64,000 nt of DNA from an uncultured Acidobacteriota bacterium. GTDB taxonomy: Bacteria; Acidobacteriota; Polarisedimenticolia; J045. Position 1 is the first letter of the stretch; each line of letters starts with the position of its first letter. The stretch lies in contig CAVPCQ010000019.1 of NCBI GenBank assembly GCA_963702425.1, positions 64,001-128,000 of the forward strand, written 5' to 3'. Under the pieces are notes generated by a model. The model did not search any database. It was not told the DNA's origin and saw only the letters and a list, made by a program, of their open reading frames with translations. A program made the position numbers and the translations under genes. Positions 17,202 to 34,388 of this stretch are shown piece by piece.

Positions 17202-17250
17202 TTGACGCCGCGCCCGATGTGGTTCATCCTTCCATCCGGATGCACTGATG
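17202..17250 (+). promoter_or_regulatory. Putative sigma70 promoter of sahR-ahcY, overlapped by two CATC-N10-GATG palindromes (candidate SahR operator)
   Basis: TTGACG (17202-17207)-N17-CATCCT (17225-17230); palindromes at 17225-17242 and 17233-17250. Confidence 0.55.
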
Positions 17251-18201
17251 AATCCACTCGCCGCCCCCCGCCAGCTCGTCGGCCGCATGGAGGCCCTGGC
17301 CGACCCGGTCCGGCTGCGCCTGCTGCGCCTGCTGGAGCGGCAGGAACTGGGGGTCGCGGAGTTGTGCGAGATCGTGCAGCTGCCGCAGTCGACGGTCAGC
17401 CGGCACCTCAAGTTGCTGGCCGACCAGGGCTGGGTGACCAGCCACCGCGAAGGGACCTCGAACCTCTACCGCCTCGCCGGCGACGAGCTGGACGACGCCC
17501 CGCGCGCGCTCTGGGGCGTCGTGCGCCAGGAGGCCGCGCGCTGGCCGTCGTCCCGCCAGGACGATCTGCGGCTGGCGCGCCGGCTGGAGGAGCGGCGGCA
17601 GGAGTCGCTGTCGTTCTTCGCGGGCGCGGCGGCCTCGTGGGATGCGCTGCGGGGCGAGCTGTTCGGCGACGGGTTCACGCGCGCCGCTCTGCTCGCGCTG
17701 CTTCCCGCCGAGTGGACCGTGGCCGACCTCGGTTGCGGGACGGGAGCGCTGGTCGCGGAGCTGGCCGGTGCCGTGCGCCGCGTGATCGGTGTCGACCAGT
17801 CGGCCGAGATGCTGGCCGCCGCACGCGAGCGCGTCGCGGGGCTGCCGAACGTGACACTGCACGAGGGGGACCTCGAGGCACTGCCGCTGGGCGACGCCTC
17901 GTGCGACGCGGCGCTGATGCTGCTGTCCCTGGCCTACGCCCCGCACCCCGGCGCGGCGCTCGCCGAGCTGGCGCGCGTGCTGCGGCCGGTCGGGCGGGCC
18001 GTGATCATCGATCTCCTGCCGCACGACAGCGACGACGCGCGACGCCGGCTCGGTCAGACCGGGCTGGGGTTCGCGCCCGCGTCGATCCGCGCCCTGATGC
18101 AGCGCGCGGGCCTGAACGGCGTGCACGTGACGACCCTTCCGCCCGCCCCGGACGCCCGCGGGCCGGCGCTGTTCCTCGCCACTGCCAACCGGAGAGCCTG
18201 A
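17248..18201 (+). CDS. sahR: ArsR-family HTH fused to a SAM-dependent methyltransferase domain (SahR/SamR-type SAM-cycle regulator)
   Basis: ALADPVRLRLL…QSTVSRHLKLL (ArsR) and VADLGCGTG (motif I); lies directly upstream of ahcY. Confidence 0.85.
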   Translation: MNPLAAPRQLVGRMEALADPVRLRLLRLLERQELGVAELCEIVQLPQSTVSRHLKLLADQGWVTSHREGTSNLYRLAGDELDDAPRALWGVVRQEAARWPSSRQDDLRLARRLEERRQESLSFFAGAAASWDALRGELFGDGFTRAALLALLPAEWTVADLGCGTGALVAELAGAVRRVIGVDQSAEMLAAARERVAGLPNVTLHEGDLEALPLGDASCDAALMLLSLAYAPHPGAALAELARVLRPVGRAVIIDLLPHDSDDARRRLGQTGLGFAPASIRALMQRAGLNGVHVTTLPPAPDARGPALFLATANRRA

Positions 18202-18213
18202 ACCGATACGTTG

Positions 18214-18300
18214 CGGGCCGGCACAGAGGCCGGCCCCTACAGCCCGTGCCAGAAACCGCGCGCCGCACAACCCGTAGGGGCCGCCCTCCGTGGCGGCCCG
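18214..18300. repeat. Inverted pair of GTAG-type REP elements (REPIN-like)
   Basis: GTAGGGGCCGGCCTCTGTGCCGGCCCG on the minus strand (18214-18240) and GTAGGGGCCGCCCTCCGTGGCGGCCCG on the plus strand (18274-18300); each is GTAG followed by a GC hairpin. Confidence 0.75.
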
Positions 18301-18318
18301 ACCCAAGGAGACACTTCC

Positions 18319-19782
18319 ATGACCCGCACCCTCGCCGAATCGACCGGCACCCTCGAATACAAGGTCCTCGACCTGTCGCTCGCCGACTGGGGCCGCAAGG
18401 AGATCGTGCTGGCCGAGCAGGAGATGCCCGGCCTGATGGCGGTGCGCGAGCGGTACCTCGCTTCGCAGCCGCTCAAGGGCCACCGCGTCACCGGCTCGCT
18501 GCACATGACGATCCAGACCGCCGTGCTGATCGAGACGCTCGCCGCGCTCGGGGCCGACGTGCGCTGGGCCTCGTGCAACATCTTCTCGACGCAGGACCAC
18601 GCCGCGGCGGCGGCCGTCGTCGGCCCCCACGGCACGCCGGAGGAGCCGAAGGGCGTCCCCGTCTTCGCCTGGAAGGGCGAGACGCTCGAGGAGTACTGGT
18701 GGTGCACGCTGCGTGCGCTCGACTTCGGCGCCGGCCGCGGACCGACCCAGATCGTCGACGACGGCGGCGACGCGACGCTGCTGATCCACCTCGGCGACGA
18801 GTTCGAGCGGGCCGGCGCGGTCCCGCAGCCCAAGCCGGACGACAGCGAGGAGTACCGGATCATCCTCGACGTGCTGCGCGAGCTGCACCGTGTCAACCCC
18901 ACGTACTGGCGGAAGGTCGCCGCCGAGTGCAAGGGCGTGACCGAGGAGACCACCACCGGCGTCCACCGGCTCTACGACCGGATGAAGGCCGGCACGCTGC
19001 TCTTCCCGGCGATCAACGTCAACGACAGCGTGACCAAGAGCAAGTTCGACAACCTCTACGGCTGCCGCCACTCCTGCGTCGACGGGATCATGCGGGCCTC
19101 GGACGTGATGCTGGCCGGTAAGCTCGTCGTGGTCTGCGGCTACGGGGACGTCGGCAAGGGCTGCGCCCAGTCGCTGCGCGGCCAGGGGGCGCGCGTCGTC
19201 GTCACCGAGATCGACCCGATCTGCGCGCTGCAGGCCGCGATGGAAGGCTACCAGGTCGCGCCGGTCGAGGACGTACTCGGAACCGCGGACATCTTCATCA
19301 CCGCCACCGGCAACCGCGACGTCATCACGGCGACTCACATGGCGAAGATGAAGGACGGCGCGATCATCGGGAACATCGGCCACTTCGACAACGAGATCGA
19401 CATGGCCGGGCTCAAGAACGTGCGCGGGGTCGTGAGGACGAACATCAAGCCGCAGTACGACAAGTGGACCTTCGCCGACGGGCACAGCGTGCTGATCCTG
19501 GCCGAGGGGCGGCTGCTGAACCTCGGTTGCGCCACCGGCCACCCGAGCTTCGTGATGTCGAACAGCTTCACCAACCAGACGCTGGCGCAGATCGAGCTGG
19601 CGCTGCACCCCGAGGCCTACCGTCGCAAGGTCTACACGCTGCCCAAGCACCTCGACGAGATGGTGGCGCGGCTGCACCTCGAGAAGATCGGCGTGAGGCT
19701 GACGACGCTGACGCCGGAGCAGGCGGCCTACATCGGGGTCGCCCCGGACGGGCCGTACAAGCCGGACCACTACCGGTACTGA
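18319..19782 (+). CDS. ahcY: Adenosylhomocysteinase (SAH hydrolase)
   Basis: [56 protein letters not shown] and C-terminal KPDHYRY; AAGGAG RBS before ATG 18319. Confidence 0.97.
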
Positions 19783-19791
19783 GGCCGAGCC

Positions 19792-20427
19792 GTGACCAGC
19801 GAACGACGGTACGGCGCAGGCGATTCCGTCTCCGACCTGTGTCGCGCGTGCAAGTCCGAGCGGCGGCACACGGTGATCGTGGCCGAGCCGGGCGGGCGGC
19901 CGTTGCGCGTCACCTGCGATTTCTGCGGCAGCCAGCACAACTTCCGCGGCGGCGCCACGGCTACCGCGGTCTCCGGATCGACGACCGGCACGGCGCGCGG
20001 CAGCGCGGGCCGTGCCGCTTTCCCGCTCGCCACCGAGCGCGAGCGCCGGGAGCCCCCGATGGCCATCGATGTGAAGGACGGCTCCATCGCCGATCTCGAG
20101 ACCCTGCTGCGCCGCGTGATCCGCGAGGAATGCGGCATCACCCCGGTGGCCCCCGCCGAGAAGTGGCGCGGTGGCGAGATGATCCTCAGGCCGGGCCGGC
20201 CGGGCGTGGCGGACAAGAGCTGGCCGCTCGAGACGCTGTTCCAGAAGATCGTCGCGATCCGCAACCGGCTCCGCGTGCTCGAGCAGCAGGTCAACGCCGC
20301 CGAGGAGCTGTCGCCCGAGGCCAAGCTCAAGCTCCAGGGGTACATCACCGGCTGCTACGGCTCGCTCACCAGCTTCAACGTCCTCTTTGCCGACGACGAC
20401 GACCGGTTCAAGGGCGGCGGCGATTGA
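19792..20427 (+). CDS. Hypothetical protein with an N-terminal zinc ribbon (CRAC…CDFC)
   Basis: Starts 9 bp after ahcY; coding-like codon bias; two CxxC pairs. Confidence 0.75.
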   Translation: MTSERRYGAGDSVSDLCRACKSERRHTVIVAEPGGRPLRVTCDFCGSQHNFRGGATATAVSGSTTGTARGSAGRAAFPLATERERREPPMAIDVKDGSIADLETLLRRVIREECGITPVAPAEKWRGGEMILRPGRPGVADKSWPLETLFQKIVAIRNRLRVLEQQVNAAEELSPEAKLKLQGYITGCYGSLTSFNVLFADDDDRFKGGGD

Positions 20428-20475
20428 GCGCCGACCGGCGCTGATCCGGACGGGCTTCCGGCGGGGTCCGGGGAG

Positions 20476-21366
20476 TCAGGCGAGCAGTGCCGCACGCAGT
20501 GCGGACACGTGCTCAGGCGTCGTTCCGCAGCAGCCGCCGACCAAGCGCGCTCCCGCGGCGACGATCGCCGGCGCGTGCGTCGCGAAGAACTCCGGCGATT
20601 CGGGCCAGGCGAGCGCGCCGTCGACGAGCTGCGGCAGCCCGGCGTTCGGTCGTACGGCGACCGGGACCTCCGAGTGCCCCGCCAGGTCCGCGACCACGCT
20701 CACCATCCCCTCGATCCCGTTCCCGCAGTTCGCGCCGACGACGTCGGCGCCGGCCCCGGCGAGCGCCGCCGCCGCCCGCGCCGGGGTGACCCCCATCACG
20801 GTGAAGATCCCGCGCGGGGTCGCGTCGAAGGTCATCGTCGCGACGATCGGCACGCCGGGTGCGACGCGCTTCGCCGCGCGCACCGCGAGCAGCGCCTCCG
20901 CCAGGTCGGTCATCGTCTCGATGCAGATCAGGTCGACCCCCGCGCCGGCCAAGGCGGCGAGCTGGCGCTCGAACGCCGCCTCGACCTCCTCCGGCCGCGC
21001 CGGGCCGAGCGGTGCGAGCAGCGTCCCGCTCGGCCCGACCGAGCCCGAGACGAGCGCGCGGCCCCCGGCTTCCGCGCGCAGCAGCTCGACCGCGCGCCGG
21101 TTGATCTCCTCGCAGCGCGCCGCCAGCCCATGCGCCGCGAGGCGCAGCGGCGTTCCGCCGAAGGTGTTCGTCGTTAGGATCTCCGCGCCGGCTTCGAGGT
21201 AGCGCCGGGCGATCGCGCCGACGATCTCCGGCGCGTCGAAGATCACCCGCTCCGGCGGGGCTCCGGGCGGAAGCCCGGCCTCGGCGATCAGCATCGTGCC
21301 CCACGCGCCGTCCCCGACGACGACCTCCCCGCGCCGCAGCCGCTCGAGCAGCGCGGCGCCGGTCAC
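20476..21366 (-). CDS. Homocysteine S-methyltransferase domain protein (stand-alone MetH Hcy module)
   Basis: DGAWGT, GAEILTTNTFG, GANCG, PNAGLP and GGCCGTTPEH zinc motifs; GTG start overlaps the upstream stop (GTGA). Confidence 0.92.
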   Translation of the reverse strand: MTGAALLERLRRGEVVVGDGAWGTMLIAEAGLPPGAPPERVIFDAPEIVGAIARRYLEAGAEILTTNTFGGTPLRLAAHGLAARCEEINRRAVELLRAEAGGRALVSGSVGPSGTLLAPLGPARPEEVEAAFERQLAALAGAGVDLICIETMTDLAEALLAVRAAKRVAPGVPIVATMTFDATPRGIFTVMGVTPARAAAALAGAGADVVGANCGNGIEGMVSVVADLAGHSEVPVAVRPNAGLPQLVDGALAWPESPEFFATHAPAIVAAGARLVGGCCGTTPEHVSALRAALLA

Positions 21367-22001
21367 GCCGCGCCCACGAGCTGCTTCACGCGCAGCGCCG
21401 CGCTCGCCGCGTCGTACGCGAAGCCGTCGGCCCCGATCTCGCGCGCGAACGTCTCGGTCACCGGTGCCCCGCCGACGATCACCTTCACCCGGCCCGCGAG
21501 TCCGCGCGCGCGCACCTGCTCGACGACGTCGCGCATCCCGGTCATCGTCGTCGTCAGCAGCGCGGAGACGCCGATCACCACCGCCCCGCGCTCGACCGCC
21601 GCGTCGACGAATCGTTCGGCGGAGACATCGACACCGAGATCCGTGACATCGAAGCCGGCGCCGCCGAGCAGGATCCCGACCAGGTTCTTGCCGATGTCGT
21701 GCAGGTCCCCGCGCACCGTGCCGAGCACGACCCGTCCCGCCGTCGGTACCCCGCCCGCCGCGAGGTGCGGCCGCAGGACGTCGAGCCCGGCGTGCATCGC
21801 CTTCGCGGCCAGCAGCACGTCGGGGAGGAAGATCTCGTGGCGGCGGAAGGCCTCGCCGACGACCGTCATCCCCGCGATCAGGCCGAGGCGCAGGATGTCG
21901 GCCGGCGCAGCCCCGGCCGCCAGCGCCTCGCCCGCGAGCGCGCGCACGGCGTCGGGCTCGCCGGCCCGGACCTCGTCCGCCAGGCGCGTCAAGCGCTCCA
22001 C
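21363..22001 (-). CDS. Corrinoid (cobalamin-binding) protein, MttC/MtgC-like
   Basis: GDLHDIGKNLV, SALLTTTM and VGGAPV; AAGGAG RBS before GTG 22001. Confidence 0.93.
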   Translation of the reverse strand: MERLTRLADEVRAGEPDAVRALAGEALAAGAAPADILRLGLIAGMTVVGEAFRRHEIFLPDVLLAAKAMHAGLDVLRPHLAAGGVPTAGRVVLGTVRGDLHDIGKNLVGILLGGAGFDVTDLGVDVSAERFVDAAVERGAVVIGVSALLTTTMTGMRDVVEQVRARGLAGRVKVIVGGAPVTETFAREIGADGFAYDAASAALRVKQLVGAA

Positions 22002-22744
22002 GTGATTGCTCCTTCCGAGGCCGCGGGCGGGCGGGGCACGGGCCACGGCAGCGCGCGCGCACGGCACTCGTGCGTCGCGCAGGCGGCGCAGGCCGGGAAG
22101 TCGGGCTCGATCCGGTGCGCGTCCGGCGCCGCCGCGAGCAGCGCCCCCGACACCGACTTGAGCGGGGCCATCAGGCAGCTCGCGCCGAGCGAGATCCCGG
22201 CGGCGTCGGGCGCCAGCGCGCGGAACAGCGCCTGCTGCCCGCTGAGGTGCCAGCCGCAGTAGCCGGGGCTGTAGGGAACCACGTGTGCCGCACCGCGGGC
22301 CCGCCCCGCGTCGACGAGCCGCTCGCGCCACGACGCGCCGAGCCGCCAGGAGAGCCCGTCGACGGCCTCCGAGGCCAGCGCATCGAGCACGAACCCGAGC
22401 GGCAGGTCTTCGCCCCCCGTGAGTGCGCCGATCCGCGCGCACAGCGGCTCGCCCAGCGTGGCCGCGAACAGCGCGACCGCCTCCGCCCGGGGGAGCACGC
22501 GCTCGAGCGCCGTTCGATCGTCGTTGTGTCCGCTGCCGCGGTAGACGGTGGCGAAGTCGTCGACGGGCAGTTCGGCGACGACCCCGCGCGGCTCGGCCAG
22601 CGCGTCGAACAGCAGGGCTGCGTCGTCGAGCAGGCGCCGCGTCCGCGCCGACGGCTCGACGCCGGCGGGGATCCCGGCCCGCAGCAGCACGGCCGCGGGG
22701 TCGGGCGCGATCTGGCGGGGCGAAAAGCGGGCGATCCCCCTCAC
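21989..22744 (-). CDS. B12-dependent methionine synthase activation (AdoMet-binding) domain protein with a C-terminal CxxCxxxxC
   Basis: FAATLG, YSPGYCGW, CLMAPLKSVSG and CAACATHEC. Confidence 0.82.
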   Translation of the reverse strand: MRGIARFSPRQIAPDPAAVLLRAGIPAGVEPSARTRRLLDDAALLFDALAEPRGVVAELPVDDFATVYRGSGHNDDRTALERVLPRAEAVALFAATLGEPLCARIGALTGGEDLPLGFVLDALASEAVDGLSWRLGASWRERLVDAGRARGAAHVVPYSPGYCGWHLSGQQALFRALAPDAAGISLGASCLMAPLKSVSGALLAAAPDAHRIEPDFPACAACATHECRARALPWPVPRPPAASEGAITWSA

Positions 22745-22776
22745 GCATCCCCTCTCGCCGGCGAGGCGTCCAGCCC
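22741..22776 (-). repeat. Diverged copy of the last 12 codons of the mttB-family gene (matches 32872..32907)
   Basis: GLDASPARGDA* versus GLDALPARDDA*; both stops are followed by a G run. Confidence 0.7.
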
Positions 22777-22829
22777 GCACCTCACGATGCGGAAAGGGTA
22801 GCACCGGGTCGCGGAAGCGGCGGGGAGCG

Positions 22830-23450
22830 CTACCTCCTGGGACCGCCGTAGCCCCCGGTGAGGCCCACCCCGCGCGTGCCGGCCCCCACGCCGTGGAAAC
22901 CGGGGCCGACACCGCCACCCACACCGATCCAATCGATGAACAGCGCGGTCGCTCCGCCAGACTTGGGCATCACGCCATCGATCAGCTTGTAGCTGTAGAC
23001 CAGGTCCTTCCCGTCGACGACCGGATGGCTGATCTCGATCACGGCGAGCACGTTGTCCTTGCGCCCCGGCTCGTAGACCGAGAGCGTCGCGTTGGGCGGG
23101 TCGGCTGCGAAATTGTCCGGTCCCTCGCCCGCCTTCCACTCATCCAGGTAGGCCGGCATCGTCAGGTTGCCGGCAACTCGCACCGGGCGATCCGAGAAGT
23201 AGAGCGTCTGCTGGTTCACGTTTACCAGCCGGAGCGTCTTCGCCGCAGGGTCCGCCTTGAGGTCTTCGGAGGTCTGCACGAACATCAGCTGTACCTTCTC
23301 CGCGGAAGGGGCGGCCTTCGGAGGCGCCGTGCCCTGCTGAGCGAAAGCGGCGGCTACCGCAACCCCTGCCATCGCCAGCGATGCCGCTGCCAGCAGCAGC
23401 AAGCGATGGGAGCGGTCCTGCATCCCGTCGGTTCGATCCGAACTCTTCAT
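22830..23450 (-). CDS. Secreted hypothetical protein with a Gly-rich tail; paralog of 25852..26718
   Basis: Signal-like hydrophobic stretch; shared core FVQTS…TLxFxxRP…PPNATLSV…LFID. Confidence 0.75.
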   Translation of the reverse strand: MKSSDRTDGMQDRSHRLLLLAAASLAMAGVAVAAAFAQQGTAPPKAAPSAEKVQLMFVQTSEDLKADPAAKTLRLVNVNQQTLYFSDRPVRVAGNLTMPAYLDEWKAGEGPDNFAADPPNATLSVYEPGRKDNVLAVIEISHPVVDGKDLVYSYKLIDGVMPKSGGATALFIDWIGVGGGVGPGFHGVGAGTRGVGLTGGYGGPRR

Positions 23451-23954
23451 GGTCGATCCCCTCGTCTCTGCGGTTGGAAACCGGTTGGTGTTGCGCTGCC
23501 CCAGGCACGGCAGGACGCCTCGATTCCCCGATCGGGGCCGTCGAACCGATAGGGTGGCACCGGGGTGGCCGGCTTGTAAACAGGGCCGATGCAGCGGGCG
23601 CGGGGTGGGTTCCGCACCCGCAGCGGGCGCTCGGCGAGCGCCTTCCGGACCCGAGCGAAGTCCCCGCGTCCCCGCGCCCCCGCTTTCCATGCCCGGCGCC
23701 CCCCGTGTAGCATCGCGGGACGCGGGCCCGGCCGCTTCTCCGCACGAATCGCGAATCGGACGGGTTCCGGTCGGCCTCGATGACCGGACGTCGATCCACG
23801 AGCGAGCCCACATGAACACACCGAGAACTCGAGGGCGTCGGAATCCGGGGCACTCGATCCGGGTGGCAGACGGGACGGCGTGCGAGCGGCCTTCCCGTCA
23901 CGCGGCGAGGGGGCTCCGCTTTCCCGTCCTCGCGCCGCGGCCGGAGGCCCGCGA

Positions 23955-24672
23955 GTGAGCGTTCCCCGCCGCATCTCGCGCTGGGCCTTTTTCGCGTCCG
24001 TGGCCGTATGGACCGCGTGGGTTCCAGGCGGGTGCGCATTCGCGGGCGATCCATGGCAGCTCTGGCCGGAAGTCGGCGTCTACGTCGGCCTGTCCCCCGC
24101 GACGCGGCTCTTCTTCGATCTGCCCTACTCGGTCGAGGGCGACACCGACACCAAGTCGCTCGAGATCGCCGCGTACTTCGACGTTTCGCTCAAGCCGGTC
24201 CTGCGGCGCTCGCTCCAGGAGGGAGACTGGGCGCGTAGCCGGTACTTCTGGATGAGGTTCGGGTTCGATCACATCTTCAACGTGACCAACGGCCAGGAGG
24301 ACGAGCCCGAGGAGCGCGGCGTCATCGAGATCCGCGGACGAGCCCCGACGCTCTGGGAGATCTGGCTCGAGGCGCGCGTCCGCGCCGACCTCCGCTGGAT
24401 CGGGGGCGAGTACTCGACGCGCTACCGCTTCCGGATCGAGGCCAACCGCGAGTTCAAGATCCGCGGCCGGCCGGCGACGCCCTACGTCAACGTCGAGTGG
24501 TTCTACGACGACGCGCTACGACGCCTGGTCGCGGACCCTCTACCAGGCCGGAGCGGAGTTCACCTTCACCGACCACTTCCGGTTCGAGGCCTACGTGGCG
24601 CGGCAGGTGGACGAGGTCCCGGATGCGTCGGGCCTCTACGCCCTGGGCCTCTTCGCGAAGTGGTACTACTGA
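23955..24672 (+). CDS. Outer-membrane beta-barrel protein (DUF2490-like) with a 1-bp frameshift near 24510
   Basis: GGAGG RBS and signal peptide; removing one G restores FYDTRYDAWSRTLYQAG…LFAKWYY* with an aromatic C-terminus. Confidence 0.7.
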
Positions 24673-25655
24673 GCGCCGGCCGGAGCCGTCTGCTCCCTGG
24701 CGAGCTTCTTCAGCGCCAGCGTGAGCGGGATCGCCAGGATGGCGCCCGGCAGGCCGAGGACGAACGCCCACAGGACCAGTGCGAGGGTCGCCTCGAGGAA
24801 CGAGATCTCGGCCACGCGCTTCATGAAGAGCGGCGCGACGAAGTTGTCCACTACGAGGTTCGTCACCACGAGGCAGGCGGCTACCACCAGCGCCCGCTGC
24901 CAGCCATACAGGAGCAGCGCCAGGACGGTCGGAGGGAACAGGGCGATCAGGTAGCCGATCGACGGGATGAAGTTCAGGAAGAAGTAGAGCACGCACCACA
25001 GGACCGGATACTCGACGCCGGCCAGCAGCAGGACGGCCAGGTTGGCCGTCGCGTTGATCGCGTTGGTCCTTGCCGCGGTTGCGACGAAGCGCTGGATGTC
25101 ACCGCCATGCCAGGCGAGCCGCTCGCCGAGGCGGCTCCGCCGCCCATCGGCATCCTCCGCCATCTCGACCAGCAGGAGCACGGTCAACAGCGCAATCAGG
25201 AGGCCGTTCGAGAGCAGGCTGCCCGCCTCGGGGAGGACCCACCGCGCGGCCTCGAGCAGGCGCTCGGGCGTGATCATCTTCGTCGCCGTGAGGCTGGCCG
25301 CGTCGAGACCGTACCCGCTGAGGAACGCCGCGACGTTCCCCGAGAGGGTCTTCACCTGCTCGGCGTAGACCGGGAACCGCTCGCGCATCCGGACGATGTC
25401 CACGCTGAGCAGCAGGAGCGCCACGATCTGCACCGCGCCCACGGCAGCCGCCGCGACGAGCAGCGCCACAGTCTTGCGGAGTTGGAACCGCCGCATGAGT
25501 CCGTGGGGGAACCAGAGGGCGCCGTAGGCGAGCAGGAGGGAGAGCAGGATCGGCGCCAGGATCGGTGACGCGAGCTTCATCCCCCAGAGTACGACGACGG
25601 CATAGGCCGCGCGCTCGAGGAGACGGGAGGGCGGAGCCGGCGGGAGGTCCGTCAT
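24666..25655 (-). CDS. AI-2E family transporter
   Basis: Multiple transmembrane segments; LNFIPSIG and W…LGLPGAILAIPLT; GGAGGA RBS. Confidence 0.88.
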   Translation of the reverse strand: MTDLPPAPPSRLLERAAYAVVVLWGMKLASPILAPILLSLLLAYGALWFPHGLMRRFQLRKTVALLVAAAAVGAVQIVALLLLSVDIVRMRERFPVYAEQVKTLSGNVAAFLSGYGLDAASLTATKMITPERLLEAARWVLPEAGSLLSNGLLIALLTVLLLVEMAEDADGRRSRLGERLAWHGGDIQRFVATAARTNAINATANLAVLLLAGVEYPVLWCVLYFFLNFIPSIGYLIALFPPTVLALLLYGWQRALVVAACLVVTNLVVDNFVAPLFMKRVAEISFLEATLALVLWAFVLGLPGAILAIPLTLALKKLAREQTAPAGAQ

Positions 25656-25851
25656 CGGGGTCGTCCTCCGGCGTGCCGCCGGCCTCTCCCGCGGCACGAT
25701 GCGGGCAGCCGGGCCCGGGCCGCCTTCAGCTCCCGTTGCCCCGCTGCCCGCGCACCCCGCTCGTCCGACCCGAGGGTCGGACCTTCCCGCTGCCATCGAC
25801 CGCCACGAACGGGACCCACCCGACCGGCCGCGAGTCAGCGGACGCCGTCGG

Positions 25852-26718
25852 TCAGGAGATCTGGGCCAGGATCTTCGCCTTCGCAGCGTTGTAGTCGCTC
25901 TCCGTGATGAGCCCCTGCTTGTACAGGTTCTGGAGCTGTTCGAGCTGCTGCTGGGGCGTCTGGGCCGAAGCCGGATGCTGCGCCGCTGCGGCCGCCGCAG
26001 CGGCGGCCTGGCTGGCCGCGGCGGCAGAGGCAGCAGCCGCCTGGGACGCGGCGGCGGCGGACTGGGCCGAGGCGGCCTGCGTGGCCGCGGCCTGTTGCTG
26101 GGCTGCAGCCTGCTGCTTGGCGGCGGCGCTCTCCTCTGCCGCGGCCGTCGTGGCGACCGCGGCCGTGGTGGCACCGGCGACCACCACGGTCCGCCGGGCG
26201 GCGCGACGCCAGACACCGAGGATGTCGATGAAGAGCGAAGCCGGCCCGGCCCGCTCGGGCAGCCGGCCATTCAGCAGGATGACGTCGTAGGTGAGGTCGT
26301 CACCGGAGAGCCGCGGGTTCATCAACGTGACCACGACGAGAGCGGGTTGCTCGCTCCCCTGCGGCACGACGGAGAGCGTGGCATTCGGCGGCTGGACGCG
26401 GAAGCTGTTGTCGCCCTCGCCCCAGAGCTGCAGGAACTCCCCGGTCGAGAGGTGCCCGGCATCCTTGTCGGGCCGGTTGGCGAAGAACAGCGTCGCCGGG
26501 TTCAGTCCCGTGAGGGTCAGGGTCCGCGCCGCCTCGTCCAGGACGACGCCCTTCGAAGTCTGCACGAACAGCGCCTGCACCTCGGACTGCCCGGGCTCCG
26601 CTCCCGCTGCGCTCGGGGCGTTCGCCAGCGCCAGGGCGGGGGCGGCACACAGCACGAGGATCAGCGTGCACAGCATGAAGCGTGCACGGACACCATTCAT
26701 CGGAAGCACTTTCGTCAT
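25852..26718 (-). CDS. Secreted protein with an Ala/Gln-rich linker and a C-terminal SHOCT domain
   Basis: Signal peptide; QLEQLQNLYKQGLITESDYNAAKAKIL fits the SHOCT pattern. Confidence 0.8.
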   Translation of the reverse strand: MTKVLPMNGVRARFMLCTLILVLCAAPALALANAPSAAGAEPGQSEVQALFVQTSKGVVLDEAARTLTLTGLNPATLFFANRPDKDAGHLSTGEFLQLWGEGDNSFRVQPPNATLSVVPQGSEQPALVVVTLMNPRLSGDDLTYDVILLNGRLPERAGPASLFIDILGVWRRAARRTVVVAGATTAAVATTAAAEESAAAKQQAAAQQQAAATQAASAQSAAAASQAAAASAAAASQAAAAAAAAAQHPASAQTPQQQLEQLQNLYKQGLITESDYNAAKAKILAQIS

Positions 26719-26799
26719 GGGATATCTCCTCTGTCTCTCTGCGATCGTCTCGGCACGGATCGTCTATCTCTGTTCCGTAAACGCCGGGCACCGGGAGGA

Positions 26800-27408
26800 C
26801 TACTTCCTGGTGTACTGGATCTCCATCATCTTGAACATCTTGCCGTCCGGGCCCGGGCCCCAGATCTGGCTGACGAAGCCGGCCCCGGTGTTCGCCACCG
26901 AGACCTTGACCTCGACGGGAGACGGCTTCCCGGTGACCGGGTCGGCGACGGTTCCGTTGAACATCCAGTTCGTGCCCGTGGCATCGGCGGTCCCGGTGTA
27001 CCACTCCATGCTGGTGCTCCCCGAGTCCATGGCGGTCATGACGAACTTCTTCAGGACGTTGTCGTAGCCCACGTAGTCGATCGCGCTGATGATCTCGCCC
27101 TGCGAAACTGCGGCGAGCATGAGCTGGAGATAGCGGTCGCCGAGCACCATGGTGTTGATCGACGTCCCCACGAACTCGGACGGGGGCCCGGACGGATCGG
27201 TCCAGGACTTGCCCACGGCGCTGAAGGTCCCCACCAGGAGCCGCAGGTCACGGTGCGCCGCGCCCGGGGTCATCGCCTCGGCTTCGGCTCTTGCTGCCGC
27301 CGTCGTGCCGGGCGGGTTCGAAGCGGCCTTGGCCGCCTGGGAGAAGGCGGAGGCCGTGAAACACAGGCCGATGATCAGTACGGCCACGAACTGGGGGAAC
27401 CGTTTCAT
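26800..27408 (-). CDS. DUF1579-like secreted protein
   Basis: Signal peptide; PGAAHRDL..LVG, MVLGDRYL, GYDNVLKKFV…DS and KMMEIQYTRK; AGGAGG RBS. Confidence 0.78.
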   Translation of the reverse strand: MKRFPQFVAVLIIGLCFTASAFSQAAKAASNPPGTTAAARAEAEAMTPGAAHRDLRLLVGTFSAVGKSWTDPSGPPSEFVGTSINTMVLGDRYLQLMLAAVSQGEIISAIDYVGYDNVLKKFVMTAMDSGSTSMEWYTGTADATGTNWMFNGTVADPVTGKPSPVEVKVSVANTGAGFVSQIWGPGPDGKMFKMMEIQYTRK

Positions 27409-27420
27409 GCGCAGCCTCCT

Positions 27421-27468
27421 TGGCTTGTGAAGCGCCTGGCTTGTGAAGAGCTTGGTTTGTGAAGGGAA
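27421..27468. repeat. Three 16-bp direct repeats (TGGYTTGTGAAG core) just upstream of the DUF1579 RBS
   Basis: tggcttgtgaagcgcc / tggcttgtgaagagct / tggtttgtgaagggaa. Confidence 0.7.
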
Positions 27469-27715
27469 TGTCCGGGCTGACGGCGCCCCCGGGGAGGAAC
27501 GAGGGGCTGCCGGACCCGGGCAACACGAGAAGGACTGCTCCATTGCTGACCTCAACGGTCGGCGCGCCCTGGCGCACGATTCGGCGGTTACGATACACCC
27601 GCTCGGGGGGGGGGGGGTGGGCTAGAATCCAAGCGCCGTTGTCCCCATCCAGCTCGATCAGCCCGGCGACCGCCGCCGGCTCGAGCGGCAGGGATCGACT
27701 TCAAGGAGGATTGCG

Positions 27716-30244
27716 ATGCGCACACGCAGACCGGGTTCCCGTCCGGGGAGGGCGGCGTTCGCCCTCATGGCTCTCGTCCTGGCCGGCCTCGGTATCTTCC
27801 TGGCCGGCGCGCAGCAGGCGGCCCCCCCGGGCTCGCCCGCCGCGACCACCACCATCAGCGGCGAGCAGCTCCCGGCACCGCCGGGGAAGTTCGAAGGCAC
27901 GATCGATCGCACCGTGGCGGGGTCGAAGCCCTACTGGCAGCCGCGCGTCGTGCCGCCGAAGGGCGCACCGAACGTGCTGCTGATCATGACCGATGACACC
28001 GGCTATGGGACGCCCAGCACGTTCGGCGGCGTGATCCCGACGCCGAACCTCGACCGCGTGGCCGCCGGCGGCCTGCGCTACACCAACTTCCACTCGACCG
28101 CGCTCTGCTCGCCGACGCGCGCGGCGCTGATCACGGGGCGCAACCACCACTCGGCCGGCTTCGGTGTGGTCGCGGAGCAGGCGACCGGCTACCCCGGCTA
28201 CGACAGCATCATCACCAAGGACAAGGCGACGATCGGCACGATCCTGCGGGACAACGGCTACCGTACCTCGTGGTTCGGCAAGAACCACAACACGCCGTCC
28301 TTCCAGGCGTCGGCGATCGGACCGTTCGACCAGTGGCCGACCGGGATGGGGTTCGAGTACTTCTACGGCTTCATGGGCGGCGACACCAGCCAATGGCAGC
28401 CGGCGAACCTGGCCCGCAACACGACCTACATCTACCCCTTCCAGGGGAATCCCAAGTTCAACCTGATCACCGCGATGGCCGACGAGGCGATCGCCTACAT
28501 GAACCAGGTCAACACGCTGACCCCGGACCAGCCGTTCTTCGTCTACTACGTGCCCGGGGCCGCGCACGCGCCACACCATCCGACGCCCGAGTGGATCGAC
28601 AAGATCAGCAAGATGCACCTGTTCGACCAGGGCTGGAACAAGCTGCGCGAGCAGGTCTTCGCGAACCAGAAGAAGCTCGGCGTGATCCCCGCCAACGCCA
28701 GGCTGACGCCGTGGCCGAAGGAGCTGCTGAAGGAGTGGGACCAGCTCACGGCCGACGAGAAGAAGATGTTCATCCGGCAGGCCGACGTGTTCGCCGCCTT
28801 CGTGGCCTACACCGACTACGAGATCGGCCGCGTGATCCAGGCGGTCGAGGACATGGGGAAGCTCGACAACACGCTGGTCATCTACATCAGCGGCGACAAC
28901 GGCGGCAGCGCCGAGGGAACGCTGATCGGCACGCCCAACGAGGTCGCGATGTTCAACGGCGCCGAGGTGCCGGTCGCGGACCAGCTCAAGTACTTCTACG
29001 ACGTCTGGGGCTCCGACCGGACCTACAACCACATGGCGGTGGGCTGGTCCTGGGCCTTCGACACCCCGTTCTCGTGGACCAAGCAGGTCGCCTCGCACTT
29101 CGGCGGGACCCGGCAGGGCATGGCGATCATGTGGCCCAGGGTGATCACCGACAAGGGCGGCATCCGCAACCAGTTCCACCACATCATCGACATCGTGCCG
29201 ACGATCCTCGAAGCGACCAAGATCAGGCAGCCGGACTTCGTGGATGGCATCAAGCAGAGCCCGATCGAGGGCGTCAGCATGGCGTACACCTTCGACAAGG
29301 CCAACGCCGGCGCCCCCTCGACGCGGAAGACGCAGTACTTCGAGATGATGGGCGACCACGCCATCTACCACGAAGGCTGGATGGCGAGCACGAAGGTCAT
29401 GCGGCCGCCCTGGGACATCGCGGGCGGCGTCGGGAGCGACCCCGCCGACTACCCGTGGGAGCTGTACGACCTCGCCAACGACTGGACGCAGTCCGAGGAC
29501 GTGGCCGCCAAGCACCCGGACAAGCTGAAGGAGCTCCAGCGGATCTTCTGGGAGGAGGCGCGGAAGTACCAGGTGCTGCCCCTCGACTCCACGGTGGTGA
29601 CGCGGCTGATCACCCCGCGCCCGAGCATCACGGCCGGCCGCAACGTGTTCACCTGGACCGCCCCGCTGACCGGGACGCCCAACGGCGACGCACCGAGCAT
29701 CCTGAACGCCTCGTACAACTTCAAGGCGGAGGTCGAGGTCCCGCAGGGCGGCGGTGACGGGATGCTCATCACGCAGGGCGGCCGCTTCGCGGGGTACGGC
29801 TTCTACATGCTGAAAGGGAAGCCGGTGTTCCTCTGGAACATGGTCGATCTGAAACGCCTGCGCTGGGAAGGGCCCGAGGTGCTCTCGCCCGGCAAGCACG
29901 TGCTCGAATTCGACTTCAAGTACGACGGCCTCGGCATGGCGACGCTGGAGTTCAACAACATGAGCGGCATCGGCCGCAGCGGCACCGGCGTGCTCAAGGT
30001 CGACGGCAAGGCGGTGGCGACGCAGAAGATGGAGCGGACCATCCCGTTCATCCTGGCTTGGGACGAGAACCTCGACGTCGGGTCCGACACCGGGAGCCCG
30101 GTGGCCGACCAGGACTACCAGTGCCCGTTCGCCTTCAATGGGAAGATCGGCAGGATTACGTTGACGATCGACCGGCCGAAGCTGACGCCTGAGGACATCA
30201 AGCAGCTCCAGGCCGCGCAGCGCAACAACAAGACCAGCGAGTGA
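27716..30244 (+). CDS. Exported Cys-type arylsulfatase
   Basis: PNVLLIMTDD, LCSPTRAALITGR (formylglycine motif CxPxR), FGKNH and GDNG; AGGAGG RBS. Confidence 0.93.
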   Translation: MRTRRPGSRPGRAAFALMALVLAGLGIFLAGAQQAAPPGSPAATTTISGEQLPAPPGKFEGTIDRTVAGSKPYWQPRVVPPKGAPNVLLIMTDDTGYGTPSTFGGVIPTPNLDRVAAGGLRYTNFHSTALCSPTRAALITGRNHHSAGFGVVAEQATGYPGYDSIITKDKATIGTILRDNGYRTSWFGKNHNTPSFQASAIGPFDQWPTGMGFEYFYGFMGGDTSQWQPANLARNTTYIYPFQGNPKFNLITAMADEAIAYMNQVNTLTPDQPFFVYYVPGAAHAPHHPTPEWIDKISKMHLFDQGWNKLREQVFANQKKLGVIPANARLTPWPKELLKEWDQLTADEKKMFIRQADVFAAFVAYTDYEIGRVIQAVEDMGKLDNTLVIYISGDNGGSAEGTLIGTPNEVAMFNGAEVPVADQLKYFYDVWGSDRTYNHMAVGWSWAFDTPFSWTKQVASHFGGTRQGMAIMWPRVITDKGGIRNQFHHIIDIVPTILEATKIRQPDFVDGIKQSPIEGVSMAYTFDKANAGAPSTRKTQYFEMMGDHAIYHEGWMASTKVMRPPWDIAGGVGSDPADYPWELYDLANDWTQSEDVAAKHPDKLKELQRIFWEEARKYQVLPLDSTVVTRLITPRPSITAGRNVFTWTAPLTGTPNGDAPSILNASYNFKAEVEVPQGGGDGMLITQGGRFAGYGFYMLKGKPVFLWNMVDLKRLRWEGPEVLSPGKHVLEFDFKYDGLGMATLEFNNMSGIGRSGTGVLKVDGKAVATQKMERTIPFILAWDENLDVGSDTGSPVADQDYQCPFAFNGKIGRITLTIDRPKLTPEDIKQLQAAQRNNKTSE

Positions 30245-30467
30245 TCGATGCGGGAAGCCGGCCCGCCCCACCCGGGGCTTGCTTGCTCCCGCCGCGGGGC
30301 GGGATCAATTCCGGTCCGGCCAGGAGGGCCTTCTGGCGTCCCTGGCCACCCGTGTCGCCGTGCGACTCGCGACAGCGTGGTGATGTGAACAGGGAAACGC
30401 ACGCCCGATCGCCGGCGTGAACGGCCGTGCCCAGCGCAGCCGCTCGCCAACACAAGGGGGAATCCGA

Positions 30468-31367
30468 ATGACCGGAACCGGAAGCTTCAGGCTCGCGGGA
30501 CTCGCCAGCCTGGCCCTGCTGGCCGCTGTGGCCTGTGGTGGGCCGCAGAATGGGAAGAGCTCGAGCGCCTCCCGGAATCCTGCCGCGGCTGGTTCCACAC
30601 CGGGCGGAGCCGTGGCCGGCAGCCCGCCTGCGGGCAGCGCGGCAGCCTCAGACACTCGCGCGCAGGGAAGCGAGGCGATGGCCTTCCTGAAGGCCATGTC
30701 GGACTACGTGGGCAGCCAAGCGACGATCGAGCTCACTTTCGACAGCGACATCGAGGTCATCACCCCGCAACTGGAGAAGATCCAGTTCGCCAGTTCCGGC
30801 GAACTGCTGTTGAGCCGCCCGGACAGGCTGCGTGCGCATCGGGTCGGTGGATATTCCGATGTGGAGTTGATCTTCGACGGCAAGACCGTCAGCATCAACG
30901 GACGGAGCGTCAACGGCTACGCGCAGTTCGAAGCCTCAGGGAACCTCGATAACCTGTTCCATGCGCTGCGGGAGGGGCACGGCGTCGCGCTGCCGGCCGC
31001 GGACTTCCTGCTGGCCAATTCCTACGACGTTCTCGTGGCTGGGGTCCAGGAGGCCAAGTACATGGGCCGCGGCGTGATCGACGGCCGGGAGTGCGAGCAC
31101 CTCGCCTACCGCAATTTCGACACCGACTGGCAGCTTTGGCTGGACGTCGGCGAGCGGCCCGTTCCGCGCAAGGTGGTGATCACCAGCAAGACTGTGAACG
31201 GCGCGCCCCAGTACACCATTCGCATCAAGAGCTGGAAGACCGGCGGCAAGCCTGCGCGGGACGCCTTCGTGTTCGTCCCGCCGGCCGGGGCGACGCGGCT
31301 CGACCAGGACGAACTGATCGAACTCGACGAATTGCCGCCGGACTCGCCGGCAGGAGGGACTCGATGA
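30468..31367 (+). CDS. DUF2092-family lipoprotein
   Basis: Lipobox-like LAAVAC; [11 protein letters not shown]…RPDRL, CEHLAYR…DWQLW and APQYT. Confidence 0.8.
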
Positions 31368-31732
31368 CACGCGACACTCGCAGATACGGGCTCGTATTCT
31401 GCCTGACGGCTGCGGCATGGGTGTGGAGTGGCACCGACGCGGAGGCCGTAGTCGGAAGGCCGGCGACGCCGGTCAGCTATGCCGGTGTGGCCCGGCGCTC
31501 CACCGTCGGGGCGGGGGCGCCGGGCGTGGGCGTTGCTCCCGGGGTCGGAGTCGGCGCGCCAGGGGTCGGCGTTGCGCCCGGGGTCGGGGCGCCGGGAGTC
31601 GGCGTTACTCCCGGGGTCGGGGCCGGGGCGCCGGGAGTCGGCGTTGCGCCCGGGGTCGGGGCCGGTGCGCCCGGTGCCGGCGCCGCTCCGGCGAATCGCG
31701 GCGGACCCGTGAACAGGGTCGGGGTGAGGTGA
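31364..31732 (+). CDS. Small secreted Gly/Val/Pro-rich protein with elastin-like VGVAPG repeats
   Basis: ATGA overlap with the DUF2092 gene; signal peptide, then [16 protein letters not shown] and the repeats. Confidence 0.75.
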
Positions 31733-31811
31733 GCGCCGGCGAGCGGACGCCCGCTCACCGGTCGCCGTGACGGAGTCCGGCGCGAAGGAAGATCGCGGGA
31801 GAGGCAGGACC

Positions 31812-32813
31812 ATGGCCGGCATCGGAGAGGTCATACACGGCGGTCCGGTGACCCGGGAGGACTTCGCCCGCATCCGCGAAACGCTGCTGTTCGAGGAGCC
31901 GGGCCGCAGCCGGAAGCTGGTGCGCTTTGCCTGCCTGATCGTCCTGGCGGCGGCGATCGCCACGTTCGGCCTGCTTGCGGACTCCGAGGCCACCGTGATC
32001 GGCGCGATGATCGTCGCTCCGCTGATGCTGCCGATCATGGGCCTGGCGTTCGGGACGAGCATCGCCGACCGCAGGGCGATGGCGAGCTCGATCACCGTGT
32101 CGCTCGGGGGCATCGCGGCCGCGATCGCCGTCGGGCTGGTGTTGTCGCTGCCGATCCGGTCGTTGCTCCACGTCGAAGCCAGCACGCAGATCATGGCGCG
32201 CACCTCCCCGCGGCTGATCGACCTGCTGGCGGCCCTGGCGACCGGCCTCGCCGGCGGCTTCGCGACCAGCCGGAAGGACGTCTCCGATACGCTGCCCGGG
32301 GTGGCCATCGCGATCTCGCTGGTCCCGCCGCTCACCAACGCCGGGATCCTGCTCGCGGCCGGTCGGGTCGAGTTGGCGCTCGGGAGCCTGCTGCTCTTCG
32401 TCACGAACTTCCTGGCGATCGTGCTGACCGGCACGCTGCTGTTCGCGGTCATGGGCTTCCCGCGCGCCGCCCTGAGCGAGGCGTCGCCGAAGGCGCGACG
32501 GAACGCGCTGGCCCTGGTCCTGACACTCGTGCTCGTCATTGCCGTGCCGCTAGGTTCGTCCAGCTACCGGGCGGTGACCGACTCGCTGGCCGAGCAGCGC
32601 GCCGCGAAGGCCGCGCGCGCCTGGATCCGGGGGAGCGACTACCGGCTCGTGTCGGCGCGAGGCGAGAGAACCTTCGTGCGCGTGACCGTCGCGGGGCAGG
32701 GGGACCTGCCGCCCCTCGACGACCTCCAGGCGGCGCTTCGCGGCCGGCTCTGCGGCAAGTCGCTTGCCGTCGACGCGGTAACGGAGTTCAGGAGGACCGT
32801 GCCCATCGAATAG
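31812..32813 (+). CDS. DUF389-family membrane protein
   Basis: DSEATVIGAMIVAPLM, ARTSPRLIDL and LPGVAIAISLVPPL; an alternative GTG start lies at 31767. Confidence 0.85.
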   Translation: MAGIGEVIHGGPVTREDFARIRETLLFEEPGRSRKLVRFACLIVLAAAIATFGLLADSEATVIGAMIVAPLMLPIMGLAFGTSIADRRAMASSITVSLGGIAAAIAVGLVLSLPIRSLLHVEASTQIMARTSPRLIDLLAALATGLAGGFATSRKDVSDTLPGVAIAISLVPPLTNAGILLAAGRVELALGSLLLFVTNFLAIVLTGTLLFAVMGFPRAALSEASPKARRNALALVLTLVLVIAVPLGSSSYRAVTDSLAEQRAAKAARAWIRGSDYRLVSARGERTFVRVTVAGQGDLPPLDDLQAALRGRLCGKSLAVDAVTEFRRTVPIE

Positions 32814-32871
32814 GCGAGACGGTGCGCTCGGAAACGCGGCCGCCGATCGCGCGGCGGCGGAAGCCCCCCCC

Positions 32872-34335
32872 TCATGCGTCATCCCGTGCCGGGAGCGCGT
32901 CCAGCCCCGCGCTGCGCGCCGAGTCCTCCATCCGCTGTACCAGCACCCGCTTCGCGTCGTCGCCGAGGCGCGAGGGGCGCCACGCCGCGACGAGCCGCTC
33001 GACCTCGCGCGTCGCGCGCGCCCGCAGCGGGAGCGCGCCCTCCTCGCGCCAGCGCGCCTCGGAGGCGCGGTCGATGACCGGCCCGGGGAACCGGATCTGG
33101 CTCGCGAGGTGCCGCCGCGTGTGCGCGGCGATCAGCAGGTGCTTCTCGCGCAGCAGCTCCTCGAGCAGCGGTCGCGCCGGGAAGTCGTCGCGCGGCTCGA
33201 TCCCCTGCACCAGCCGCAGCGCCATCCCGCAGGCCTCGTTGTCGACGACCAGCTTCTCCAGGCTCTGCGCGTTCTCGAGGTCGAGCATGCCGGGTCCCGA
33301 GACGGAGTTCACTCCGGAGAGCGCGGCCAGCACCGCGCCGGCGCCGGTCTCGAGCCCGGCCTGGGCGTCGAGCGCCTTGGCGTCGCTGAGCGCGATGTAG
33401 GCCTGGGTCGGCAAGCCGAGCTGGCGGCCGATCTCGTTCGCGCCGCAGGCCAGCATCATCGTCTCGATCGCACCCAGCGGGGCGGTCTCATAGCGGATGT
33501 CGAAGACCGCGGCCGAGCAGCCCCAGAGCAGCGGCGCGCCCGGCGCGGCGAGCTGTGCGATCACGACGCCGCTCAGGTTCTCGGCGGCGTGCTGCACGAG
33601 CGTGCCGACCAGCGTCACCGGGGCGAGGAATCCGGAGAAGGGGACCGCGACGACCTCGACCGGGATCCCGGCGCGCGCGCAGTCGACGAGGTTCGAGACG
33701 GTCGACTCGCTCCACTGCAGGGGCGAGGTCGGGCAGCAGGTGAAGAGCGCGAGCGGCCGCGCGCGCAGCGCCGCCTCGCTGCCGCGCGCGACGACGAGCA
33801 GGTCGCGCATCACCGCGAAGGCCTCGGCGGTGAAGGCCCCGGTCACGACCGGCTTCTCGCCGTAGAGCAGGGCGAGAAAGAGCCGGTAGCTGTCGGAGAT
33901 CGCGGCCGGAACGTCGGCCGGGATGAAGGCGGTGCTCTGCGCTGCGAGGTGCGGAAGCCCGGCGACGAGTTTCGCGTAGCGGACGTAGTCGGCGGTGACG
34001 GGCGCGCGCAGCTCGCCGGTGGCGCCGTCGAGGATCCGGATCGCGGCGGAACCCGGCGTGAAGTGGACGTTCCAGCCGGAGAAGTCGTGGGTCGGCTCGC
34101 CCGTCACGTCGAACAGACGGAAGGCGTGCGGCACGGTGGCCAGGGCGCAGTCGACGAGATCGCCCGGCAGACGGGCCCGGCGCGACGCGCGGTCGACCTC
34201 GGCGCCGTGGCCGGCGAGCAGATCGAGCACGCCGTCGTGGTGGATCTCGACGCCGAGGGTCGCGAGGACGTCCCGGGCCTCGGAGACGATCCGGTCGGCG
34301 AGGCGGTCGTCGAGCAGGCGGAGGGTCGGGCGCAT
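32872..34335 (-). CDS. Trimethylamine methyltransferase (MttB) superfamily protein, non-pyrrolysine
   Basis: SPLQW, APVTLVGTLVQHAAENLSG, SDAKALDAQAGLE and GMLD…SLEKLVVDNE; no in-frame TAG. Confidence 0.9.
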   Translation of the reverse strand: MRPTLRLLDDRLADRIVSEARDVLATLGVEIHHDGVLDLLAGHGAEVDRASRRARLPGDLVDCALATVPHAFRLFDVTGEPTHDFSGWNVHFTPGSAAIRILDGATGELRAPVTADYVRYAKLVAGLPHLAAQSTAFIPADVPAAISDSYRLFLALLYGEKPVVTGAFTAEAFAVMRDLLVVARGSEAALRARPLALFTCCPTSPLQWSESTVSNLVDCARAGIPVEVVAVPFSGFLAPVTLVGTLVQHAAENLSGVVIAQLAAPGAPLLWGCSAAVFDIRYETAPLGAIETMMLACGANEIGRQLGLPTQAYIALSDAKALDAQAGLETGAGAVLAALSGVNSVSGPGMLDLENAQSLEKLVVDNEACGMALRLVQGIEPRDDFPARPLLEELLREKHLLIAAHTRRHLASQIRFPGPVIDRASEARWREEGALPLRARATREVERLVAAWRPSRLGDDAKRVLVQRMEDSARSAGLDALPARDDA

Positions 34336-34388
34336 GGTGGAAGGATGCGCGAAGGGCGGGGGGGCGGTCCACGTCTCTGGCTGCCTAT

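Follow-up and report, generated by a model that had tools for sequence, protein, structure and literature searches.

The locus considered here, in an uncultured bacterium of the phylum Acidobacteriota, raises the question of where a split, cobalamin-dependent methionine synthase obtains its methyl groups when no folate-binding module is encoded beside it. The locus covers positions 20476-34335 of a 64,000-nt stretch of contig CAVPCQ010000019.1 (assembly GCA_963702425.1), and the whole of this stretch is referred to as the window. A preliminary description, made from the sequence alone, had proposed that the methyl group passes from an MttB-family methyltransferase via a corrinoid protein to homocysteine, without a pterin carrier. 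We found support for this proposal in the gene order of other genomes and in the parts list of the genome itself, and not in the window alone. The four proteins, here called MttB, ACT, COR and HMT, are probably the parts of one folate-free, cobalamin-dependent relay that transfers methyl groups to homocysteine. Their genes are the following.

32872..34335, minus strand: mttB, non-pyrrolysine MttB-family methyltransferase, the proposed first methyltransferase (MT1); 487 amino acids, PF06253 at 229 bits.
21989..22744, minus strand: act, stand-alone protein resembling the MetH activation domain, the proposed reactivator of COR dependent on S-adenosylmethionine (SAM); 251 amino acids.
21363..22001, minus strand: cor, corrinoid (B12-binding) protein; 212 amino acids, PF02310 and PF02607.
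20476..21366, minus strand: hmt, homocysteine S-methyltransferase, the proposed methyl-corrinoid:homocysteine methyltransferase (MT2); 296 amino acids, PF02574 at 217 bits.

A cluster of the same four components was described by Williams et al. (2022; PMC9324843) in Ca. Electryoneota and "diverse bacteria". That work proposes corrinoid-dependent methionine synthesis from an unknown methyl donor and reports that a full MetH coexists with the cluster. Both the cluster and the hypothesis are already published in that account, and the window is a rearranged addition to a known, uncharacterised kind. Judged by the published description, the window differs in that mttB is located 10.1 kb apart and in that the cluster lies beside sahR-ahcY.

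The G+C content of the window is approximately 70%, which made the raw lists of open reading frames (ORFs) noisy, and the gene calls were settled from Pfam and NCBIfam matches and from inspection of the junctions. The act and cor genes overlap by 13 nt, with the Shine-Dalgarno sequence GGAAGGAG ahead of the cor start, and cor and hmt overlap by 4 nt, the cor stop and the hmt start sharing GTGA. That the activation, corrinoid and homocysteine methyltransferase proteins are encoded by separate, overlapping genes, as stated in the preliminary description, was confirmed by the Pfam matches, a fold match and the reading of the junctions. The domain matches and the fold model of ACT also agree with the separate homocysteine methyltransferase, corrinoid and SAM-binding activation proteins of the cluster of Williams et al.

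For MttB, the score against TIGR02369 was 323 bits, below the cut-off of 525 bits. Comparison with the PDB gave 159 bits to the pyrrolysine-containing MttB (7xcl) and 155 bits to MtgB (9yce/2qne), suggesting that the protein is about equally far from both; our statements on MttB clades are based on identities and on these PDB bit scores. The frame is intact with no in-frame stop, and the in-frame UAG codon at the active site that marks the pyrrolysine-dependent enzymes is lacking. A leucine is aligned with the pyrrolysine position of 7xcl, which together with the PF06253 match agrees with the non-pyrrolysine MttB/MtgB homologue of the published cluster.

COR carries a B12 cap (PF02607, B12-binding_2) in addition to the B12-binding domain (PF02310). 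It matched the NCBIfam models MtgC (204 bits), pyl_corrinoid (195 bits) and metH (140 bits), each below its cut-off, and the PDB entries 1y80 (194 bits), MttC (151 bits) and MetH (about 100 bits). Thus, by these scores COR appears to be nearer to the methylotrophic corrinoid proteins than to the B12 domain of MetH. The protein contains the sequence GDLHDIGKN, and residues D99, H101 and G104, which we take to be the DxHxxG motif of the B12 domain, are invariant across 26 sequences. The top PDB match of HMT was MetH of T. maritima (1q7m), and the cysteines in its motifs GANCG and GGCCG are presumably zinc ligands.

The match of ACT to PF02965 (Met_synt_B12) reached 22 bits, under the cut-off of 25 bits. 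A model was built with AlphaFold (AF2) from 22 homologues (pLDDT 87.4). Its best Foldseek match was TM0269 (1j6r), an activation domain that stands alone (E 1.6e-10, TMt 0.81), and the MetH reactivation domains of E. coli, human and Thermus came next. According to this model, ACT is predicted to have the MetH activation fold. Residues C163, C219, C222, C227 and R230 are kept in 80–81 of 81 aligned sequences (L008-L087), where C163 lies inside a motif used for the selection of loci, while the tail C219-x2-C222-x4-C227 lies outside. The C-terminal CxxCxxxxC tail is not found in the MetH of the same genome, which ends before it. It is possible that the four cysteines form a site for a metal or an Fe-S cluster, on what is otherwise an activation domain of the MetH type.

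Within the genus, the ratio of nonsynonymous to synonymous substitution rates (dN/dS) was 0.18–0.21 for mttB, 0.33–0.51 for act, 0.24–0.30 for cor and 0.25–0.30 for hmt. These ratios of 0.18–0.51 indicate that all four genes are under purifying selection. Structure prediction of a complex of MttB and COR gave a score of 0.31 against a mark of 0.32, and was not used as evidence either way.

The gene order was analyzed across phyla, starting from ACT. A search among 8,000 scored candidates gave 492 ACT matches at E <= 1e-3, and a motif scan with one genome per GTDB species gave at least 599 stretches, of which at least 578 were confirmed by tblastn. The best 80 of these at least 578 ACT loci were taken with up to 10 kb of flanking sequence and queried with the window proteins. 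By their record titles, the loci belong to Acidobacteriota, Gemmatimonadota, WOR-3, Fidelibacterota, Ignavibacteria, Planctomycetota, Cloacimonadota and others. MttB was encoded directly 5' of ACT on the same strand in 68 of the 80 loci, or in 65 of the 75 with at least 1.5 kb of room, at 55–72% identity. COR followed directly 3' of ACT in 66 loci (65 of 78 with room) and HMT was present downstream in 54, with the order cor-hmt in 50 of the 68 loci with room. The colinear order mttB-act-cor-hmt was observed in 46 of the 63 loci with room on both sides, as well as in a member of the same genus as the window (G003, described below). In an all-against-all census of 5,024 ORFs from the flanks, each remaining family was shared by at most 11 of the 80 loci. 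Across phyla, MttB shows the tightest linkage to ACT, and the suggestion that the synteny might not be conserved is contradicted by these counts.

The genome in which the window is located (5.1 Mb, 91% complete) was examined for the remaining components of methionine synthesis. PF00809, the pterin-binding family, matched solely a FolP-like gene and a complete MetH of about 1,177 amino acids, and a free pterin module was not found in the 91%-complete genome. PF00809 had no match on the contig of the window, which extends the earlier observation that no pterin or methyl-tetrahydrofolate (methyl-THF) module is encoded in the window. Matches to PF02574 were the MetH, the HMT of the cluster, a YitJ-like fusion of a homocysteine methyltransferase with a methylenetetrahydrofolate reductase (HMT-MTHFR), and one further HMT-like gene. 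A single MttB was present; tblastn with COR detected COR itself and the B12 domain of MetH only, and tblastn with ACT detected ACT itself only. No MetE-family gene was found in the genome, nor any match to DUF1638 (PF07796) or to RamA-type proteins (PF14574). Since the genome has one MttB, one free corrinoid protein and no free pterin module, COR would be the only candidate corrinoid partner for MttB, and MttB would be the only candidate methyl supplier for COR, apart from the module fused inside MetH. Of the genes for which the preliminary description had advised a search, metE and a separate pterin module are thus lacking, but a complete MetH and the HMT-MTHFR fusion are present.

The only MTHFR match (PF02219) in the genome was the C-terminal half of the YitJ-like fusion (G000:C15:39958-41968, L004), which contains one frameshift. 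Orthologues of the fusion in three relatives (G002, G003, G004) have intact frames of 668–697 amino acids, and the frameshift either arose in the assembly or marks a loss of recent date. If the loss of MTHFR is real, the supply of methyl-THF to MetH would be impaired and the route via MttB would carry more weight.

From the gene content, homology, fold, synteny and co-occurrence we infer the chemical steps, the donor and the physiological role as follows. MttB would move a methyl group from a small methylated donor onto the Co(I) corrinoid of COR, and HMT would pass it from methyl-Co(III)-COR to homocysteine, yielding methionine. ACT would restore Co(II)-COR by reductive methylation with SAM, like the activation domain of MetH, and the relay would include no folate-binding module. 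As donor, glycine betaine or another quaternary amine is the leading guess, since all characterised non-pyrrolysine MttB members use quaternary amines according to the discussion section of Mausz et al. (2025; PMC12478193). In this organism, the system may serve as an additional route that feeds donor methyl groups into the methionine and SAM cycle, beside sahR-ahcY. It is regarded as an extra methionine route rather than the sole one because a complete MetH is present.

The genes surrounding the cluster, and those separating act from mttB, are the following.

17248..18201, plus strand: sahR-like regulator with an ArsR helix-turn-helix and a SAM-methyltransferase domain (Pfam HTH_5 and Methyltransf_11/25).
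18211..19782, plus strand: ahcY, S-adenosylhomocysteine hydrolase; PF05221 at 472 bits.
19792..20427, plus strand: gene for a protein of 211 amino acids without assigned identity, after ahcY.
22830..32813, mixed strands: seven unrelated genes between act and mttB, identified by Pfam.

The sahR-like gene, ahcY and the 211-amino-acid gene converge on hmt and lie just outside 20476-34335. The adjacent and convergent position of sahR-ahcY noted earlier is therefore correct, with the 211-amino-acid gene placed between ahcY and hmt. It is also literally true, as had been stated, that mttB lies upstream on the same strand; the distance to act is 10,131 nt, and the window alone provides no operon link. 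The intervening genes on the act side are located on the minus strand and encode a secreted protein of 206 amino acids, an AI-2E transporter, a SHOCT protein and a DUF1579 protein, while the three genes on the mttB side are located on the plus strand and encode a sulfatase, a DUF2092 protein and a DUF389 protein.

This arrangement was compared with those in relatives, in a set of 41 genomes consisting of the window's own (G000) and 40 others. Both ACT and MttB were detected in 12 genomes and neither in 23, whereas four had ACT only and two MttB only; the four with ACT only comprise one contig-edge case, two weak matches in MetH-sized frames, and G034. The distance between act and mttB in the genus is 107 nt in G003, 1,985 nt in G001, 6,097 nt in G004 and 10,131 nt in the window, and the two genes are adjacent in four more of the 41 genomes (G006, G015, G027, G033). 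In G003, sahR-ahcY converges on a contiguous hmt-cor-act-mttB, after which comes the same Kelch gene as after mttB in the window, and the block of seven genes is absent. Since all four genes are contiguous in G003 between the same flanking genes as in the window, the layout of the window is that of a contiguous operon opened by insertions, and the window contains a disrupted copy of the four-gene cluster. The ancestral state would be a tight mttB-act-cor-hmt operon, into which unrelated genes were inserted between mttB and act in the genus, about 10 kb here, so that mttB would be transcribed separately. The convergence of ahcY on hmt is seen in G000, G003 and G004, and sahR adjoins the cluster in G003 and G004; in G001, a fragment of ahcY of 60 codons lies beside hmt at the start of the contig, showing a partial adjacency. 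In the 80 loci, weak SahR-like matches were obtained in four loci of other lineages, none of them adjoining the cluster.

The insertion in G004 resembles that of the window but lacks the sulfatase and DUF2092 genes. The stretch 27716-31367, which holds these two genes, has a G+C content of 0.66 as compared to about 0.70–0.73 around it. Because of the lower G+C content and the absence from G004, the sulfatase and DUF2092 genes look like the newest addition between act and mttB.

A second clade of MttB proteins, 42–50% identical to that of the window, was observed in the same class (L093-L096, in G028, G036, G040 and G032). These genes are linked to HMT and an ACT-like gene, in the order hmt-mttB-act or cor-hmt-act-mttB, and no COR gene was seen beside MttB in three of the four loci. 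Another genome of the class, G026, has a form with MttB, COR and a pterin protein without ACT or HMT. Thus, given that the second clade pairs HMT and the activator with MttB and that G026 has a pterin protein instead, HMT and the MetH-type activator accompany MttB in place of a THF methyltransferase.

We also searched 50 operon-bearing genomes, which represent 50 of 52 full-operon loci, with PF00809. In 35 of these carriers a match beyond the FolP-like gene was obtained, located in a frame of at least 950 amino acids in 25 and in a frame of 590–841 amino acids in 10. Another 14 carriers had the FolP-like match only, and one, a bin of 1.1 Mb, had none. Among the 14, a MetE-type gene (PF01717) was present in five and absent from nine, one of which is a WOR-3 record titled as a chromosome, with the operon HMT as its sole full PF02574 gene. 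That the four-gene system is the sole methionine synthase in some carriers is suggestive only, the completeness of the MAGs (metagenome-assembled genomes) being unknown. More tentatively still, the system may be a self-contained, folate-independent B12 methionine synthase that is the sole one in some lineages, uses a donor new to the MttB clades, and is kept active by a new kind of corrinoid reactivator with a Cys4 metal or Fe-S site (C163 and CxxCxxxxC); this full combination is possible, although we hold it to be somewhat doubtful. The idea of a new donor comes from the clade being 56–72% identical across phyla, yet matching the solved MttB and MtgB structures at about 155–159 bits.

The relay resembles several characterised systems in part. 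In the quaternary-amine:THF systems MtgB-MtgC-MtgA of the anaerobes D. hafniense and E. limosum, MT2 is a pterin/THF methyltransferase and reactivation is carried out by RamA. The window shares with them a non-pyrrolysine MttB-family MT1 and a cognate corrinoid protein, but has a homocysteine methyltransferase as MT2 and a MetH-like activator. Canonical MetH has in common with the cluster the homocysteine barrel with its cysteine motifs, the B12 cap and B12 domain, and the fold of the activation domain. It differs in that the cluster has no pterin/methyl-THF module and has its parts as separate proteins, and in that COR is nearer to the methylamine-type corrinoid proteins and ACT has the extra CxxCxxxxC tail.

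The relay also resembles MtgBCDE, equivalent to the split MetH of Phaeobacter inhibens. In the genetic work on Ruegeria pomeroyi (Mausz et al. 2025), one corrinoid protein serves an MttB-family betaine methyltransferase, a pterin protein and a homocysteine methyltransferase in common, and the set MtgB/MtgC/MtgE ties betaine demethylation to methionine synthesis genetically. For P. inhibens, Price et al. (2018; PMC5764234) describe a split MetH with RamA-like and DUF1638 reactivation. Matched by family, the PF06253, free corrinoid and PF02574 proteins are all present in the window. However, MtgBCDE needs the pterin protein MtgD and is reactivated by RamA-like and DUF1638 proteins; the genome of the window is without a free pterin module and without both of these reactivators, and has a MetH-type activation protein. 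Furthermore, the mtg genes of Ruegeria are scattered, whereas the ancestral state of the system in the window would be a single operon.

Several observations weigh against the proposed relay. In the window, mttB is not in one operon or transcript with act-cor-hmt, since 10,131 nt and seven genes, three of them on the opposite strand, intervene. With its complete four-module MetH, the organism does not need the system to make methionine, and in Ruegeria methionine synthesis requires MtgD. The 80 loci are those nearest to ACT among at least 578 matches and do not form a random sample; they were chosen through two ACT motifs, which makes conservation inside those motifs circular, and most of the genomes are MAGs of unknown completeness. 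As many as 17 of the 63 loci deviate from the four-gene order: five have MttB-ACT-COR without HMT, three have MttB-ACT only, six lack MttB but encode ACT together with COR and/or HMT, and three have ACT alone. A pterin match was obtained in only 2 of the 80 flanks, which in itself favours the folate-free relay, but the single query, the pterin domain of the genome's own MetH, would miss a very divergent module. Finally, no biochemical or genetic work on the ACT-containing cluster was found in a literature search. The deviating loci were further analyzed by Pfam on 10 ORFs from eight of them, mostly located just 3' of COR or ACT; no pterin or HMT domain was detected, and the ORFs encode a histidine kinase, a tRNA-synthetase-like protein, a radical SAM protein and an aromatic lyase (one each), with no match for six.

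The same four-protein chemistry might instead have a mainly catabolic or scavenging role, in which an abundant methylated osmolyte is stripped with homocysteine as the acceptor, feeding the SAM pool or starting the breakdown of the donor instead of assuring the supply of methionine. A full MetH in the genome and a second pterin module in the 35 of 50 carriers would fit this role, as would the adjacency to sahR-ahcY in the genus, which is consistent with tuning of the methyl cycle. In Ruegeria, moreover, MtgBCD rise on betaine and MtgE does not, according to Mausz et al. (2025). Against this, one methionine is produced per methyl group, so that catabolism in bulk would require turnover of methionine or SAM. 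The neighbourhood of the operon has no conserved genes for downstream demethylation or for transport, and in 9 of 50 carriers another methionine synthase was not detected. We consider a primarily catabolic role to be unlikely.

The two remaining explanations separate the proteins from one another. If ACT, COR and HMT were an ordinary split MetH fed by methyl-THF via a pterin module encoded elsewhere, MttB would be unrelated to them. HMT and ACT are indeed MetH-like, and distant pterin genes have a precedent in the systems of Price et al. (2018) and Mausz et al. (2025). Yet, in the 91%-complete genome, PF00809 is confined to FolP and the full MetH, with no free protein of this family; across phyla, no gene is linked to ACT as tightly as mttB, and a genus member has the four genes contiguous; and COR is nearer to the methylotrophic corrinoid proteins than to MetH, which makes this explanation very improbable. 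Nor is it easy to separate HMT from the rest, as an enzyme of the BHMT/MmuM type acting alone on betaine, dimethylsulfoniopropionate (DMSP) or S-methylmethionine, with COR, ACT and MttB serving another acceptor. The cor stop and hmt start share GTGA, the order cor-hmt is kept in 50 of the 68 loci with room, and no alternative MT2 is conserved in the flanks. HMT scored 212 bits against the NCBIfam BHMT model, below the cut-off of 338 bits, and its homologue Bmt of P. inhibens yields methionine from DMSP or betaine in vitro without cobalamin (PMC12366255); even so, we regard an independent HMT as barely credible. The folate-free relay of MttB, COR and HMT, with ACT as the reactivator, is the reading that we retain.

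Regulatory elements were also sought around the cluster. Comparison of 16000-38000 with Rfam at E <= 1 revealed neither a riboswitch nor any other match, and a scan of 19500-35000 for promoters and terminators gave nothing exceeding shuffled sequences. A search for sequencing runs containing 20476-24000 listed none of RNA, all of those listed having small shares (at most 0.23) of DNA contigs. When the upstream regions of sahR, act and mttB were inspected for an operator in common, the only find was a perfect inverted repeat beside mttB (34389-34423), with two 10-nt arms and a 15-nt spacer in an A+T-rich patch, located between mttB and a divergent AAA/DUF4143 gene. The window contains this repeat once and shuffled sequences do not contain it, and the mttB leaders of G001, G003 and G004 lack it. 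It was dropped as a candidate regulator site, being unique to this genome and located on the inserted side. Elsewhere in the window, two very long open frames on the minus strand, 4921-16509 (3,863 codons) and 350-6214 (1,955 codons), show a coding-type G+C content at third codon positions (GC3) and probably represent a giant protein gene.

In relation to the published cluster, the window adds no new principle. What is added here is the quantitative synteny, the series of operon opening within the genus, the argument from the parts list, the CxxCxxxxC tail of ACT, and the carriers without another recognisable methionine synthase. The series, in which act and mttB are 107 nt, 2 kb, 6 kb and 10 kb apart, shows an operon being pulled apart while its four genes stay under purifying selection, and is useful for gauging the reliability of gene neighbourhood as a guide. 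The contiguous version in the genus offers a convenient four-gene construct.

Relatives of ACT are present in at least 578 species-level genomes of Acidobacteriota, Gemmatimonadota, WOR-3, Fidelibacterota, Planctomycetota, Actinomycetota and others. Should the relay operate as proposed, many uncultured bacteria would make methionine from homocysteine without methyl-THF, and a function would be assigned to a large, highly conserved and uncharacterised clade of MttB proteins. The system would then join the core-MetE families as a fifth way of making methionine independently of folate, and would tie the methionine supply and the SAM cycle of these organisms to an environmental methylated compound and to the availability of B12.

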